Below are positions 1 through 16,145 of a DNA stretch of 20,000 nucleotides, in pieces. Below the pieces are notes generated by a model. It was given only the letters and a program-made list of their open reading frames with translations, made no database searches and was not told the DNA's origin. This DNA comes from Moniliella sp. 'wahieum'. Lineage: Eukaryota. The stretch covers positions 433,157-453,156 of the forward strand of contig RSEE01000054.1 in assembly GCA_003971905.1 (NCBI GenBank), in the 5' to 3' direction. The translations under genes were made by a program, and so were the position numbers. Position 1 is the stretch's first letter. The number at the start of each line of letters is the position of its first letter.

Positions 1-482
1 GGGGTAGCCGACGGGTTCGGCGTGTTGCCTGTGTGCAGCAAATGGTTTCATGTCAGAAGAGCCCTGCCACCAGGCCATGAGGAAGGCAGGACGTACAGTC
101 GCTGTTCGCGCAGACACCGATGGCCGAGGGCTCCTGGCAGCAACAGTAGGTGGCGTACCGGAGGCACTTTTGCGTGCCGGAGAGGCTTATCAGGGTCGCT
201 GGGGATGACGGACAACTCGTCGTCGGCACGCTTGATGATGCTAGCGCTGGTGGGAGAGCATGTACCTGGGTGGGGCGGACAAATACACCATGGTTTGGTG
301 GGCAATCCTGGATGTACACCTGTCCCTGCACCGATCCGTCGTTCTTTCCGTTGGGAAGGTCGAGCACAACGCCGACCCACTGCCCCGGAGCAAAACGGGG
401 CTGGCCAAGATACATAATCTTGCCCACCCCCGCTGACCTCGACGCGCTGCCCGACCCACAGCTGGGGCGCATTGGCGCTCAT
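1..482 (-). CDS. NIP100: CAP-Gly domain protein, most likely dynactin p150(Glued) subunit; 5' portion only, continues beyond window start
   Basis: ATG at 482-480 gives MSANAPQLWVGQRVEVSG. A 1-nt frameshift in a G run near 425-431 leads into VGKIMYLGQPRFAPGQWVGVVLDLPNGKNDGSVQGQVYIQDCPPNHGVFVRPTQV, a CAP-Gly domain with GKNDG at the extreme N-terminus, followed by a Ser/Pro-rich linker. This fits p150/NIP100; CLIP-170/Bik1 is not excluded. Confidence 0.72.
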
Positions 483-6241: not shown

Positions 6242-6398
6242 CAAGCCCCCATCTCATTGTTTGGCGTCTCGTATATAGCCCTCTTTCGCCACAACCACCC
6301 CCACTCCTTCTTTTGTCTCCCGCGCCCACCCTCAACACCACCTCGCATCTATCCCAGCCCCCCCCGAGTGCCGTGCCAACCCCCACACCGCACCCAGC

Positions 6399-8400
6399 AT
6401 GGACAGCATCCCACCTCACTGGGCTGCTCTTCCGCCTTCCCTTAGCTCCCCCGTGCTGGCTGCAGTGGCCGTCGGAGGCGTCTTGACACTCCTGCTGCTC
6501 CTGTGGTACCCTGACCGTCCCATTGGCGCCCACGCCAGGCCAACATTGGTGTCGTTCCCGGCGGATACCCTATCCTGGGCCATGTCGGCATGCTCTGGGA
6601 CTCGATCCGGCTCAAGACAAGGGACCGGTTCCTTGATGACATCTGCGATGCCCAGCGCGCCTTTGGTCCCGGGTTGCGCCCCTATGCTTTCCATCACCTT
6701 GCCATGGGCGGGACGACCATTGTCATCAACCGCCCCGAGTATGTCATGCACTGCCAAGATAACAAGTATGGCAACTTTCCCAACTACATTAAGGCGCGAG
6801 CATTCAGCGTGCCATGTCCGATTTTCTTTCGCCGAAGGGATCTTTGTTGCAGATGGCCAACCTTGGCGAACCCACGCAAGATCGCAGCCAACATCGTATG
6901 TCGCATCTCCTCCCCCCTTGTTGCGTGTGTTGGACTCGTGGAGCAGCTCTGTAGGGATCGTCGATCATCGATCAAGGCGCATGTGGGGTAGTATTAACAG
7001 GTTTCTTCCTGTTGACGCACAGTTCTCGGCTTCGAATTTCCGCACCCACTTTCAAGAAAGCATTCATGCCCACCTGAAGAAAATGGAAGCGCTTATGTCC
7101 ATCTGCGCCAAGGAGCGCATCGCCATCAACTTTCAGGACCTGATGTTCCGTTTTACCATGGACACATTTATGGACATTGCGTTTGGTTCTTCATTTGGGT
7201 CTCTTCCGTACGTCTGTGCTGTCACTCCGAGCGGCAGAAAGGATCAACAAACTAATCTTTACAAGCGAATGTGCCTCTGATTGTTTGACAGAAACCACCC
7301 CCGATGGCCTCAACCATACTAAGCCGTTTGTATCGCTTTCGATCATTTCAAGAGTGGCAAGGACGAGGGCGCAAACGCCGGCTATTCTTCTCAAACTTCA
7401 GCGGTATACTCCAGAAGGACGAAAGACGTCGGCCGCAGTCGCCACCGTCCTTTCTATGGCCAACAAGCTCATCATGGAACGGATCGACGCGCTGGCCAGG
7501 CGGGCGAGGATTCTGTTGGCAAGGATGCGTCAACTAAGGGAGTCAGACAAGCATGGCAGGACTTGCTCCAGCTTTTCCTGACCTTGACTTGAACCCTGAG
7601 ACGTTGAGCCAAGTGCTTCTCAACTATATCATTGCCGGTCGTGACTCGACGGCCCAGACCGTGGCGTGGTTGATGCTCGAACTGAAAGATCGGCCCGATG
7701 TGGTCCAGCAGTTCGTGACGAAATGGAGGCCGTGTTAGGCGATGGTGGTCCCGAGCAGCGTCTGGTTCATATGACGATATCAAAAACCTACCCTACATGA
7801 GCTGTAGTGTACGAGTCATCCGGTTGCATCCCACCGTACCCCCAAAGTCGTGGTGCGTAGAAGACGACGTGATGCGTCCCACCATCTTCCTGACGGAGCG
7901 TACAACCAGCTCCACCCCAACGGGCAAAAGTACGGCGGTACTGGTGCCGCGCGCGGACGCTGAGCCGCTTCCCGACATCTATGTGCTCAGGGCACGACGG
8001 TGATGGAGTGATTACGCCATGGCCGGAGTCCGGAGATTTGGGGCCCGATGCGGCCGAGTACCGCCCCTCACGTTTCTCAAGAGCGATGGCACGGCCAAGT
8101 CGTATTCGGCATACGTGTTTCATGCGTTCAACGCGGGGCCGCGGTTGTGTTTGGGCCAGACGTTGGCCACATTTGAAGCGATTGCCCTGTTGGCTATGAT
8201 TTTGAGCCGCTTTGATATGCACTATGACGAGGTGGCGTTGAAGAAGCCCCGCCACGTATCGCATTTCCATTACGCTACCTATCAAAAACCCTGCCTACAC
8301 TGTCCACCCTAAGCCCACGGTCCAACTCGGTCGTTCTCTCTCCCGTCGCGAGCGACTCCACAATTGCCCATTTCCCCTGGGCACTAGATACACTGCGAAG
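6399..8400 (+). CDS. Cytochrome P450 monooxygenase, CYP86/CYP94/CYP704-like (fatty-acid hydroxylase-type); frameshifted, 3' end approximate
   Basis: N-terminal membrane anchor (VLAAVAVGGVLTLLLLLWYPDRPIG), EGIFVADGQPW, INFQDLMFRFTMDTFMDIAFG, I-helix LLNYIIAGRDSTAQ (about 7615-7657), K-helix ..VIRLHPTVP, meander WGPDAAEYRPSRF, heme motif FNAGPRLCLG (8127-8156) and terminal YRISITLPIKNP. Introns at 6896-7022 (GTATGT..CAG) and 7208-7291 (GTACGT..CAG). Confidence 0.93.
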
Positions 8401-9009: not shown

Positions 9010-10598
9010 TTAGATCATACTGTCGGGGTGCGGGGGGGGCACGGGAGCGGGCGGAACGGTGCTGGAGAGCGTTTGCAGCATGCCACCCACCTCGACCAGC
9101 TCTTCCGTCGAGGCGACGGACCAAACCTAGGGCTGGGCGCCGGGGAGCGGCCCAAGCCCACGCTCAGCCAGCCGATGTGCGGTTTGGTCGCGGTAGGCGA
9201 GTTCCTTGCGCAGCAGCGCGGCGCCTTGCCGGCCCGGACCGAGACAGACGAACCGTTCCACCCCTGCAGCCAGCGGCTCTCGATCGAGGGAGAGCCAATG
9301 GACCGGCCGAGCCAACGCGTTTTGCAAGTCGAGGCGAACGTCGCGTTGCGTGTCGAGCCATTCGCTGCTAAGGGCTGAGGATGCGGGGGCGCGCTGCGCG
9401 GGCCGAGGGGTAAGTTGGACACGGCCGAGCGAACGGTTTGGGCTGCGCCCTTCTTTGGTGGTATGGTACGGTCCCGAGGTGGGCAGCGTGGCCGCTTCGG
9501 TTGCCCATCCTCGTTGACCCAGCGCTGCGTGACGTACTGCACAGCCCTCTCTGTACCAGCCAGCACAACCTCGAGCGAAGAATTGATGCTGGCCACTTGG
9601 GCGTATTCGTCCGGTGCGATCCCGTGCACGAGACCATCGCGAATATCGGCCGCGGCCAACTCGACCTCCATCTGCGCCGAAAACAGATCGCCCGGCTTGA
9701 GTGCCACGCTGCACATGAGCGAGCGACGGTATCCGGCCTCGGCGTTGCTCACTGGGCCCGCGTTGAACCCCCACGTATCATACACACTCTGTGGAAGCGC
9801 CGTGCCAGGGGGATGAAAAACGGGGTGGGCACGTAGATGCAAGCTGGACGCCAGGCCATAGTGCCGCAACAGCCGAACGCCATCGGTAAACTCCAACGCG
9901 CCCGACGCAACGAGGGAGGGGAGGCTGCCCACCAAGCCGTGACCAAGCACCGCATCAACATGATCCCGAACCAAGTCGACTGCAAACTCGGAGCGCAACA
10001 CTTGTAGGAACGACATGGTCGCCGTAAAGATTGCAGGCCATGCGTTCTCGGCGCGGGTCAGGTTGAGCTGGTCGCCTTGAAAGACCATTTTGCGGAGCCA
10101 ATCCGGTTTCGCAGCACCAGCATCCTGTTGACGCATAGGATCGGCGGGGGCGGTAGTGGCCAGGGCAGACTCAAATGCGGCACGCTGGGCTGAGGAGCGA
10201 GCATGCTCGGGCAGGTCGCCGGTCGGTCGTTGGGATCAAACGAGCGCTGGAGCGCTTCCTCTGCATCGAGCCACACTTGTTCGGCCGCAGAAAACGTGCG
10301 AGCGAGGTTGTGGGCCATACCAACGTACTGCGATCCTTGTCCGGCAAACACAAGTGCCGTCCGCTTACGACGGATCGACGGATCGGTCCCAGTCACCGCA
10401 GAGACTGGGCGCAGACGAGGACGAAAGGAAGAGGTCTGTGCAAACGGCTGCCCCCCGCGAGGGACGACATGGACCGCGGCGCAGAGAGCAGGGAGGGCGG
10501 TGCAACGGCCGCCTGCAAGCCATGCTCCCTTCGGCCACAAGGGAAGCAATGAGCGGGTTGTGAACACGGAAGGCGCAGGCAAGGCGGGGGGCAAACAT
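9010..10598 (-). CDS. Malonyl-CoA:ACP transacylase (FabD/MCT1-like) homologue, probably mitochondrial, with a degenerate active site
   Basis: ATG at 10598, Arg/Ala/Leu-rich leader, then TALVFAGQGSQYVGM, LTRAENAWPAIF, LGHGLVGSLPSLVASGALEFTDGVRLLRHYG, VASINSSLEVVLAGT, LPTSGPYHT, LARPVHW and FVCLGPG. These align with the FabD motifs FPGQGSQ, TQPA, GHSLGE, AN.NS..Q.V.SG, VS.PFH, L..PV.W and E.GPG. Frameshifts near 10590, 10140 and 9500, plus an in-frame TAG at 9127-9129. Confidence 0.88.
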
Positions 10599-11984: not shown

Positions 11985-12014
11985 CACTGCACTGCACTGC
12001 ACTGCACTGCACTG
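11985..12014. repeat. (CACTG)6 microsatellite
   Basis: Six perfect CACTG units. Confidence 0.9.
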
Positions 12015-12673
12015 TCCTAGCCGTCCCGGGTCCCGAGGCGCCTTGTCGGTGATCACGATCGCATCACGTTGATCCGTACGTCAGAGGCGGGTGAGGCCGA
12101 GGTCAGATAGGCAGGCGCACTAGCCCCACGACGCCAGCACGGAGTGGCGGTGCGCGCACCGGCCTACGCTGCGGCATAGGAGCGTCGAAGGCAAAAGGGG
12201 AAAGGCCAAGTCCGTGGAGAAGGGGGGGGAAGGAAAGAAAGGAAAGGAAAGGAAAGGGGTAGAGGGTGTGGTCCGTAGGGAGAGAAGAATTATGGTGTCC
12301 ATGGGGGAGGTGGTAGTGTCCAATTCGTGGGGGTGCGGTGGGCTCCGAGCCCGAGCCCGCCAACGTGCAAAAGGAAAGTGGGGATCCCACGCGACCGTTG
12401 TCCGTAGGGGCAAGAGGTAAGAGGGGAGAGGGAGAAAGTGTCTTCGTCGTCCATAGAACAGGGGCAAGTGAAGGTGAAAACACACAAGATATAGGAATAC
12501 AGTACCGAGCCGAGCGCAGACAGGAAACGCAACCAAACAGGCAAAAAAAACGAAGAAAACAGTCCGTACAGCACGGTCGGCCAGAGGGCCGGCGACGTGC
12601 TGGATGCTAAAAAGGGATCAGGAGGGGGGAGGGGAAGAGAGCGGGAGCGGATGCGGGCGGATACGGAGCACGG

Positions 12674-14818
12674 TCAAGTCTTGGGGTCATCGGGTCCCGA
12701 TGGTGGCGAGTGGCTGTCCAAGCGTTTGGACGAGGCCAAGGGACCCTTTTGGGAGCGGATGCGTACCGCCAAGCGGAACCCGGAGCGGGCCGAGTCGAGA
12801 AGATCCTTACAGACGTGTTCGACGTGTTCGCGTTGGAGCACGCCAGCGCAAACGCCGTACGCTTCCGGGTGGTCCGAAACCAGTTCCATCCCGTGCTCCA
12901 TCAACTTTTCCATCAACGACGCATTGCTCGAGTAAAAATTCCGCGAGGAAAAATCGAGATTGTACACTTTCCTCTTCTCCAGCGGCCGTGGCATACGGCC
13001 CTGAACGCCAGGTACCATTCGCTCCACCCATTCCCCAGCCGGCGGCTGCTCGGTCAACTGACGAAACTCGGTTACGCCCAAGTAATAGTACAAGCGGGGG
13101 CGGAGATCCAGCTAGACGAGAGGGAAGGAAAGGGGGCGAGGGGAGAGGGTGAGCTGGTGCGACGCCAAGAGCAAAGAAAGGGGTAGGCAACGGCAGAGGG
13201 GGACATACCAAGAGTTTGCGGTTGCGGAAGCGTTTGTCCGATTCGGGAATAAACGTCATGAGGCCTTCCTCGTTAAGCAGGCCGGGAGGGTAGGTGGCCG
13301 AGTTGTTGGGATCGAACGCGACGGGGCCAAGTGGCGGGCGAGAAAGGAGTGGGCGAGTCGCATGGTACTTGCACTGGAAGTGGACAGAGACCGAAGCTCT
13401 GCCAGTCCCTCCAGTCGCGCCCGTTTGGTCGCAGGATGTACCAACCCGTCCGAGGAGAGGGGCGTTTGGTCGTAGCCAGGCTGGTCTCGGGCAATAGGTT
13501 GGACCGGCTGGACCGGCTGGACCAGCAGCCAGTCCGCCCGGTCCGGGCGCAGCAAACGGGTACACGGGCGTAGCCAGCGTCGGCATCGCAGCCGATCCTG
13601 GTACGCCGGATCCCCAGCTGACCGGCGTAGAGAGGGCCATACCGGGCGGAGGCATTCGCACCGTGCTGACACCCGGACGGGACAAGACGGGCCACATGTC
13701 GACTGTGCCAGCAAGGTGAGGCGCCGAAGGCGCCGAGGGAGGGAGGTTGAGACCCATCGACGGCGCCAGTCCTGCAGGGACCAGGGGGACTCGGCCACGC
13801 TGGCAGCCGAGGTGTACAGGCAGCGAGCCCCACGGAGTCGGCAGCGGCGCGTCGGTCATGCCTGCGGGAAAAGACATGGATTCTGCATGGCTCAACTGAC
13901 CAGCAGCTGGCGCAGACCACGAGGCTTGGGCAGGCAACAGATCCGACTCGGTTGACGTCGAGGCGGGCAACGGACTCAAGCCCATCATGTTGCACTCAAC
14001 GCCAAGGGAGGCATTAACGGTCCCTACTGGGGGTGGGGTGGGGCCAGAGCAGACGTCGCGGCGGCCGGCTGGGATCGGGGCGAAAGAGGCTCCTCTGCCA
14101 GGAGGCCCCCGGACAAGACAGGAGTCGTGCGGCTGTGGGAGACTGGCTCGACAGTGGCCGGAGAAAAGAGGGCAGGAGACCCACTCGGGTTCGCCATGGC
14201 ATGTTGCTCGGATGACGAGCCCAGTCCCGTCTCCTTGAGCGTCTGGAGCTGCTGCGAGTTGGCCTTGAGGCGGGTCGACAGGCTCAGCACGCGCTGTTCC
14301 ACCGAGTCTTCGGGAGACGCGGGCTTGCGGCTGGCCGCGTCGATGGCATTGGCACTGGGGGGGCGCTTCGAGGCGACCGACTGGGTCAAATCCTCGACAA
14401 ACTCCAACGCTTGCTCGGCCAGGTTGACCACTTCGGACGTGAAGCGCACGTTGAGGCCAAAGGCATCCTGGACACGGGCATCGTTGGGGGCGGAACGGTA
14501 GAAGCGGGCGCGACCACGTCGGGGCTGGAGGCCGAGGTGGGTGTGACAGGCGAGTCGTAGAGCAGGGCCGGGGACGAGGCGTTGGCTAGCGACGGCCAGA
14601 ACGGGAGCGAGGCGCTGTGCACAGAGGGTCGAGCAAGAGGCGGGTGGACAGGCCAGGGGTCGGCAGCCGGCTTGGCCAGACTGGCAGAAGGCAGAGGCAT
14701 GGGCTGGGGCGGGAGCGAATGGGCGTAGAGCCGTTCTGCGGCGATCGAGGTGTGGCTGGCAGTGCTGGTGTGGACGGGGGCGGCGAAGGACGGGGGTGCT
14801 GGGCAAGGTCGCTGTCAT
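12674..14818 (-). CDS. Hypothetical protein: Pro/Ser-rich low-complexity regions, a helical segment and a globular C-terminal domain
   Basis: ORFs 14024..14818, 12807..13988 and 12674..13093 link up. Intron 13208-13112 (GTATGT...GCTCAC...polypyrimidine...TAG) joins ..DKRFRNRKLL to LDLRPRLYYYLGVTEF.. in phase 0; stop at 12676-12674. CT-rich flanks look like UTRs. No family recognised. Confidence 0.7.
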
Positions 14819-14842
14819 GTCGCAAGACGACGCACCGCACGC

Positions 14843-14924
14843 GGGAGGGGAAGGGGGGCGGGGAGGGGGAGGGGGAGGGGGAGGGGAGGGGGAGGGGGAG
14901 GGGGAGGGGAAGGGAAGGGGAGGG
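14843..14924 (+). repeat. (GGGGGA)n G-rich tandem repeat
   Basis: About 80 bp of G3-6 runs separated mostly by single A, ending 25 bp upstream of the minus-strand ATG at 14818. Confidence 0.85.
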
Positions 14925-16145
14925 ACGGAACGGGGTTTCTAGGCGTGGCGGCAAAAAGAGGGGCGACGGGTGGGACGGATGGATGGATGGATGCTGGCAA
15001 AGCGAGGCGGGGGCAATGAATGAATGGCTGGGCGACAGCAGAAGGGACGGGGGAGAGGGCGGGAGAAGCGGAGGAAGCGCCGTGGGTCTTGGAGCGTGGC
15101 GCCTCACTCCGGCCTCAAGCTTCAAGCGTGAAGGATGCAGCCGAAGGGTGAAGGGGAAGCTAGCGTGCGGGAAGCGTAAATAACACCAAACGCTGGTTTG
15201 GCCGCCTCACGTTCAAGTCGGCCGCTGGTACTGGCGGGGTATGCCGAGGGGGAAGGACAGGCCCCGGACGTTCAGTTCGAGTTGGACGCAAAACGTGCAA
15301 TCCTCGGCACACTCAGCCGGCGGCGAAGGCGACGGGAATTGAGCCGGCGTGCGGTTGGAGGGCGAGGGGCCGCCTGTCGGCGCTAATAGCAGCAGCGCTG
15401 GCCCTCCTGCCGATGCCCAGGACGGCTGACAAGGTGTCTTCCCTTGGCACGCAGCCAGCCGCCGCGGCGTCGATACGTATGTCTGTTCCCACCATCATCC
15501 ATCCGTAACTCAGTTGCCAGTAAGTACGACTGACGCGGGGCATCAGCCACTCGCGCCAGCCCACCCGCATCCTGTGATCAGCACCGCCAGCCCGCCGTCC
15601 GCGCCGTCAAATTTCAAACCCGACAGATCGAGCTCCCAGCGTCTCCCCCCTCCTGCCTCTCGCTACCACGTCCAAGCAGACGACTTGCCCCACGCTTTCT
15701 TTTGATCGTTCTCAGCAGACGCGGGGGTGCGCGCGCGCTGCATTGTACGGCATGTCTGGGCGCCTGGAAAATAATGAAAAGAGCCGTTTTGCATCGGTTT
15801 CCCGAGGCCATATCCGGTGTTCCAACCAGCACTGGAACGGAGGAGGAGGGTCAGGCTCTGACGTCCTGACCAATGGATGGATCGGTTGATGCGAATCAGG
15901 GGTCGGTGATCGGGTGATGGAGTGGTGAGATGGCGGCCAGGGTGGCGTTTGTCCGGCTCCCCGTTAGCGCGTAGCGCTGATAGCTGTACAGGATAGCTGG
16001 GTGGCGCGGAGCCGGTAGGGTTACGGGATGCGCTTGTGTTGAGGATGCTCACCGGTCAGCGGTCGCTATTCAATGGGGCCCCTGCCGGCCTGCACCGCCA
16101 GATCAGCCATCGCCGATCCCGATCATCGATCGGTGCGCCACCAGC

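Follow-up and report, generated by a model that had tools for sequence, protein, structure and literature searches.

We analyzed a window of 20,000 nucleotides from Moniliella sp. 'wahieum' and found on its minus strand a gene related to the malonyl-CoA:ACP transacylases FabD (bacteria), Mct1 (yeast) and MCAT (human), as well as a SEC13 gene lying about 8 kb away. The transferase-like gene can be followed from end to end by using three reading frames. Its parts, and SEC13, are laid out as follows:

10598/10510 to 9010, minus strand: FabD/Mct1-like gene as a whole, three reading frames needed.
10513..10598, minus strand: uncertain 5' end, with an ATG at 10598 in a frame that differs from that of GQGSQ (hand reading).
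10220..10510, minus strand: coding segment 1, frame B, with GQGSQ at 10342-10328 (tblastn of P0001/P0002/P0003).
9495..10214, minus strand: coding segment 2, frame A, an unbroken 720-nt frame with WPA, GHGLVGSL and RHYG.
9457..9492, minus strand: coding segment 3, frame C, 12 codons, with SGPYHT at 9477-9460 and frame changes near 9493 and 9456 on either side.
9387..9455, minus strand: coding segment 4, frame A again, covering the KGAAxxxRxAVSxLPL stretch of the homologues (the tblastn HSP in frame -1 extends through it).
9130..9384, minus strand: coding segment 5, frame C, with PVHW and LGPGR, and a frame change at a C5 run near 9390-9385.
9127..9129, minus strand: in-frame TAG at the site of a conserved Glu in YEVWS (homologue comparison).
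9010..9126, minus strand: conserved C-terminal tail (VWSVASTEEL...) that resumes past the TAG, with a TAA stop at 9012-9010.
About 2012-1003, minus strand: SEC13, identified by matches to PDB Sec13 and to named fungal SEC13 proteins.

At the 5' end, a candidate intron of 55 nt (GT..AG, 10567-10513) would link the frame of the ATG with that of GQGSQ, an assembly indel being equally possible. The protein resembles FabD, Mct1 and MCAT (PF00698, TIGR00128) in its predicted fold, its GQGSQ, its order of motifs, its PVxW and its LGPG, and differs from them by about 150 extra residues in insertions and by an altered active site. Its scores, too, fall short of the curated family cut-offs: two window pieces give 25.1 (segment 1) and 15.9 bits with PF00698 against a cut-off of 32.7, and one gives 39.7 with TIGR00128 against a cut-off of 260.9, where the homologue P0001 reaches 128.6. 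The window pieces are fragments, which depresses their scores.

In FabD, Ser92 and His201 form the catalytic dyad, Arg117 binds the malonyl carboxylate, and Gln11 and Leu93 form the oxyanion hole through their backbone amides (bioRxiv 10.1101/2020.05.15.098798). The first-pass annotation had cited this dependence on Ser and Arg correctly, and had proposed that both residues were lost here. Read base by base on the minus strand, the gene has GGT CAC GGC at 9944-9936, giving GHG where FabD has GHS, TGG at 10040-10038, giving WPA in place of QPA, and TAT at 9860-9858, giving RHYG with a Tyr at the malonyl-binding Arg position of RxRG. All three codons lie exactly where they had been placed, in one open frame from 10214 to 9495. 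When the translation of this frame is aligned by phmmer to the solved FabD 3qat (E 1.2e-5), W pairs with the Q of QPA, G with the S of GHSLGE and Y with the R of RxRG, and the nucleophile elbow has one extra residue, matching the insertion previously described. The same three pairings come from a MAFFT alignment with the bacterial FabD P0005 and fungal homologues. We take the Gln of QPA to be E. coli Gln63. The window protein is then without equivalents of Ser92, Arg117 and Gln63, and carries a Ser four residues past the Gly (GHGLVGS). It keeps the equivalents of Gln11, in GQGSQ, and of His201, in SGPYHT, the latter inside a 36-nt stretch between two frame changes. Both motifs are indeed retained, as had been noted, but in two other frames than the substitutions; the description of a clean in-frame stretch fits the three substitutions and not the whole gene, which is broken by frame changes and a TAG.

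These three residues, G, W and Y, recur in two independently assembled homologues, P0001 (460 aa) and P0002 (672 aa), which are uninterrupted ORFs from separate assemblies and are 64-65% identical to coding segment 2. Because these two proteins carry the same residues, the substitutions in the window gene are neither chance nor read errors, and the argument that they are not of the indel type stands.

We then looked at the place of the gene among its relatives. A word-based search started from the clean stretch returned 5 matches among 7977 candidates, and a profile of four of those five, run against 1.84 billion representative proteins, gave 18,057 matches at E up to 0.001. Scores fell from 866 to 226 bits over the first 20 listed, followed by a clear break to 198 bits. 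The named high-scoring relatives come from Pseudozyma, Ustilago, Sporisorium, Kalmanozyma, Moesziomyces, Testicularia, Thecaphora, Violaceomyces, Tilletiaria, Jaminaea, Parajaminaea, Sympodiomycopsis, Exobasidium, Ceraceosorus, Tilletia and Malassezia, and every named member of the window gene's clade belongs to the Ustilaginomycotina. The next group in the profile search, with GHSSGE, is from Pucciniomycotina (Mixia, Pseudohyphozyma, Phakopsora), and beyond it lie the canonical Mct1 proteins of early-diverging fungi. In a maximum-likelihood tree of 27 rows, the Ustilaginomycotina clade, window included, has a support of 100/100 and a stem of 0.9, and its sister is the Pucciniomycotina clade (100/100). 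The window gene groups with P0001 and P0002 in a subclade (100/100, stem 0.40); over 439 columns, pairwise identity is 0.61 between the window and P0001, 0.59 between the window and P0002, and 0.70 between P0001 and P0002. By its position within the fungal MCT1 tree, the window gene is the MCT1 orthologue of its lineage.

Active-site residues were counted over 82 family rows including the window, each row being the representative of a 90%-identity cluster and not an independent event:

Ser92 column, 78 rows: Gly in 76, Ser in 1 (P0341), Asp in 1 (P0354).
Residue(s) after Ser92, 78 rows: Ser in 61, Thr in 5, a two-residue insert with Ser/Thr in 5 (Tilletia); for the rest, Met in 2, Leu in 2, Leu-Val in 1 (window), Ala in 1, Gln in 1.
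Arg117 column, 78 rows: Arg in 73, Tyr in 3, Gln in 2.
His201 column, 78 rows: His in 73.
Gln11 column, 73 rows: Gln in 72.
Gln63 column, 77 rows: Gln in 52, Trp in 3, other residues in 22.

GHG is thus conserved among the orthologues, with Ser or Thr as the usual next residue (GHG-S/T-G): a Ser or Thr adjoins the Gly in 71 of the 78 rows. As for the two exceptions at the Ser position, P0341 is a Malassezia-like cluster with GHSSG and P0354 has GHDSG. Judging from these alignments, the change from Ser to Gly is an old, clade-wide trait that mostly stands beside an otherwise conserved site. Because it is clade-wide and mostly accompanied by conserved Arg, His and Gln11, it is by itself no mark of a dead enzyme: the residue that the first-pass annotation took as its leading clue is truly lost, but its loss is not particular to the window gene. 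In the sister group, the Pucciniomycotina MCT1-like proteins (GHSSGE), a second Ser already follows the nucleophile Ser, and this arrangement is the likely precursor of GHGSG. Unlike the window subclade, these proteins keep the nucleophile Ser and have His or Leu at Arg117. Several proteins from Pucciniomycotina and relatives (P0022, P0023, P0028, P0030, P0031, P0035 and P0037) also have GSGSQ or GTGSQ instead of GQGSQ; going by these motifs, Pucciniomycotina Mct1 is also unusual and may differ in its substrate preference.

On the same alignments, what sets the window subclade apart is Trp, Tyr and the lack of an adjacent Ser or Thr. Among the 77-78 family rows, Trp at Gln63 and Tyr at Arg117 occur in the window, P0001 and P0002 only (all three subclade members). 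All three have Leu or Met where their relatives have the Ser or Thr adjoining the Gly, and P0001 and P0002 have Phe at His201, where the window retains His. The GHG-S/T-G orthologues (among them those of Pseudozyma hubeiensis, Sporisorium, Malassezia, Exobasidium, Jaminaea) share with the window gene the Gly and the clade motifs GDQLNLTRAEN and YEVWS, but they keep Arg117, His201, mostly Gln63, and the adjacent Ser or Thr. Across the family, six rows are without an adjacent Ser or Thr, and Arg is also absent from four of the six, through two losses that are independent, one in the window subclade and one in Ceraceosorus. P0010, which has lost Arg and His and kept the Thr, runs against an association between the two losses, and P0334 (GHGLG) and P0350 (GHGQG) have no adjacent Ser or Thr and yet keep Arg and His. 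That loss of the adjacent Ser or Thr goes together with loss of the active site is therefore only suggestive in these counts.

The named Ustilaginomycotina orthologues also have an N-terminal extension of 130-430 residues, which was not detected upstream in the window. A profile of nine orthologues run against the six-frame pieces of the window found nothing for it (the lowest E, 0.29, belonging to another part of the window), and tblastn upstream in the window gave weak repeated matches only, at 11320-11273 (E 1.7 or worse). This extension is seen in P0002, P0004, P0006, P0007, P0009, P0011, P0012, P0013 and P0156; it has no Pfam match and contains the conserved motifs GxAGKGAVPNYG and YAPTxRSxRPLPxHTYFSxPSSSFN.

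We further investigated whether the altered form is constrained, and binned 425 alignment columns by their conservation among 69 other Ustilaginomycotina rows. Identity between P0001 and P0002 is 0.87 in the family-invariant columns, then 0.68, 0.61 and 0.50 in the most variable ones. In 79% of the 116 near-invariant columns, both proteins still have the consensus residue of the family, and the near-invariant columns altered in both number 12, Arg117 and His201 among them. The window gene itself matches P0001 or P0002 in 83% of the near-invariant columns versus 47% in the most variable class. In this protein-level comparison, the altered state is common to all three subclade members, whose substitutions track the conservation profile of the family. 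The fold was assessed on P0001 as a proxy, which is 61% identical to the window read-through. Its AlphaFold2 model, made from a 49-row alignment, is confident (pLDDT 91.8, pTM 0.91) and has the two-subdomain FabD fold. The best Foldseek matches of the model are FabD/MCAT structures (target TM 0.84-0.92); human MCAT is matched at a TM of 0.79 (2c2n), and 8csp_8, the MCAT seen on a small mitoribosomal subunit (mtSSU) intermediate, ranks 24.

Altogether, the window gene is, by its residues, a degenerate orthologue; we do not class it as an ACP S-malonyltransferase because Ser and Arg, two defining features, fail. The explanation that we favor, and that we hold to be somewhat better than even, is that it encodes a Mct1/FabD-fold orthologue whose malonyl site has collapsed and which is retained under purifying selection as a pseudoenzyme, the frame changes being sequencing errors. 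In this scenario, Gly stands for the nucleophile Ser in the Ustilaginomycotina clade as a whole, and the malonyl site of the subclade of the window, P0001 and P0002 has collapsed further, with Gln63 changed to Trp, Arg117 to Tyr, no Ser or Thr adjoining the Gly and, in P0001 and P0002, His201 changed to Phe. Such a protein could presumably not form a malonyl-enzyme, nor could it bind the carboxylate of malonyl, so that no malonyl transfer would be expected from it. It would nonetheless remain a well-folded, FabD-like protein under purifying selection, and is probably kept for something other than catalysis. The earlier proposal of a catalytically dead homologue that is kept is borne out in that Ser, Arg and Gln63 are lost and that this state is shared with the intact and constrained P0001 and P0002, but not in its view of the gene as a paralogue.

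The job of such a protein might be that of a non-catalytic binder in mitochondria. Its likeliest partner would be ACP or an acyl-ACP, which we favor because of basic residues that are retained: mapped by eye, the position matching E. coli R190 (column 475) is Arg in the family and Lys in the subclade, and the basic residues matching K286/R287 are kept as well. In E. coli FabD, R190 and K286/R287 are described as ACP and CoA contacts (bioRxiv 10.1101/2020.05.15.098798). The small mitoribosomal subunit, as for human MCAT, would be a less likely partner. Human MCAT is reported as a structural factor on mtSSU assembly intermediates (PMC9892005; PDB 8csp chain 8), a piece of background that the first-pass annotation had given accurately, and it belongs to the same fold family as the window protein, offering by analogy a precedent for a non-enzymatic mitochondrial job of this fold. 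Unlike the window protein, however, human MCAT retains its catalytic residues and its enzyme role, and the likeness of the fungal protein to it is one of shared fold only.

The state of the window copy bears on another reading, that of a true pseudogene with genuine frame changes and a genuine TAG, decaying in this species whatever its relatives keep. Relative to P0001 and P0002, the gene undergoes at least four frame changes, near 10215, 9493, 9456 and 9386, and a TAG replaces a conserved Glu; identity drops around 9560-9380, and the tip branch of the window in the maximum-likelihood tree is 0.49, against 0.27 for P0002 and 0.15 for P0001. By comparison with the homologues, introns do not account for the frame changes. 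A 59-nt GT..AG candidate (10183-10125) restores the frame, but the stretch is coding in P0001 and P0002 (AQRAAFE...), and a 62-nt candidate ending near 9495 would remove a conserved segment. The SEC13 gene can serve as a gauge of the indel error rate in this assembly. It has one ordinary intron near 1600-1540 and, in about 1 kb of coding sequence, four frame changes with no room for introns: at a G4 run near 1476-1473, dropping one G restores the usual SWAP motif, and two further changes fall within 50 nt around 1100-1050 (SGNVLAV region). The transferase gene has about 3 frame changes per kb, SEC13 about 4. Because the essential SEC13 gene is similar in density, and because homopolymer runs coincide with two of the transferase gene's four sites (near 9456 and 9386), we read the frame changes of the transferase gene as assembly noise; they are probably errors and not decay. 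As for the TAG, it may be a genuine stop or an error of the assembly. The residues of the window gene also follow the profile of the family, agreeing with the intact homologues more in invariant than in variable columns, which speaks against decay, and we regard a true pseudogene as unlikely.

Another possibility is that the protein is still an enzyme, through another nucleophile (the Ser of GS at +4), through direct transfer from CoA to ACP, or with a changed substrate. The window gene does keep GQGSQ and His201, and in the clade at large Gly coexists with Arg117 in 73 of 78 rows, with His201 in 73 of 78 and with an adjacent Ser or Thr in 71 of 78. Because these three are conserved, it is suggested that most clade members may still bind or turn over malonyl thioesters. 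The window subclade, however, has Tyr for the carboxylate-binding Arg and Trp for Gln63, P0001 and P0002 are without His201 and without a Ser or Thr adjoining the Gly, and the FabD residue after Ser is described as contributing to the oxyanion hole with its backbone amide, and its placement is not that of a nucleophile (bioRxiv 10.1101/2020.05.15.098798). Activity of the window protein is in our view quite unlikely. A related scenario starts from the absence of the FabD nucleophile Ser across the Ustilaginomycotina. Most lineages, in which the other active-site residues persist, would have a shifted or Ser-independent transfer or a malonyl-binding role. In a few, this one included, the site would have collapsed fully, and the window protein would be the end state of a series from enzyme to pseudoenzyme, with a purely structural job (binding ACP or the mitoribosome, in analogy to the moonlighting of human MCAT) and with malonyl-ACP supplied otherwise. 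We consider this series possible, if doubtful. The first-pass annotation had instead proposed a dead paralogue, in a genome that would hold a second copy with GHSxG intact. In yeast, malonyl-ACP made by Mct1 feeds mitochondrial fatty acid synthesis, which yields octanoyl-ACP, the lipoate precursor (PMC12416284). If this fungus, like yeast, needs lipoate derived from that pathway, malonyl-ACP must have some source, which speaks for a second copy. Nothing that we found, however, supports a paralogue: for each named Ustilaginomycotina species one MCT1-like protein was seen, with which the gene groups, and the tree nests it in the only MCT1-like clade found for this subphylum. A further negative comes from the exhaustive profile search, where 20 canonical-motif matches among the top 150 were looked up and none of the 13 with organism names is from Ustilaginomycotina. 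For P0038, a GC-rich canonical candidate, the nearest Atlas cluster is diatom-dominated. Weak as these negatives are, we hold the paralogue to be very unlikely and return to an orthologue retained as a pseudoenzyme as the preferred reading.

[quoted passage not shown] To our knowledge, mitochondrial fatty acid synthesis is the only known route to the lipoate precursor in fungi. If a whole subphylum lacks the textbook nucleophile, and some of its lineages the entire site, then the chemistry of this family must allow more than has been assumed, or ACP must be loaded by another route. A dead subclade within it would separate the structural role from catalysis naturally, which bears on the moonlighting of human MCAT.

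Elsewhere in the window, the region 12000-15000 is very GC-rich (0.64-0.68) with a strong positive GC skew, and a 592-codon open frame with no Pfam match lies at 12810-14585 (minus strand). At 6279-8309 (plus strand), three ORFs in two frames match Cytochrome P450 at profile positions 86-165, 258-298 and 387-445, a split gene whose breaks may be introns, assembly indels, or both. An ORF at 56-478 (minus strand) carries a CAP-Gly domain (72 bits), and its gene probably extends past the start of the window.
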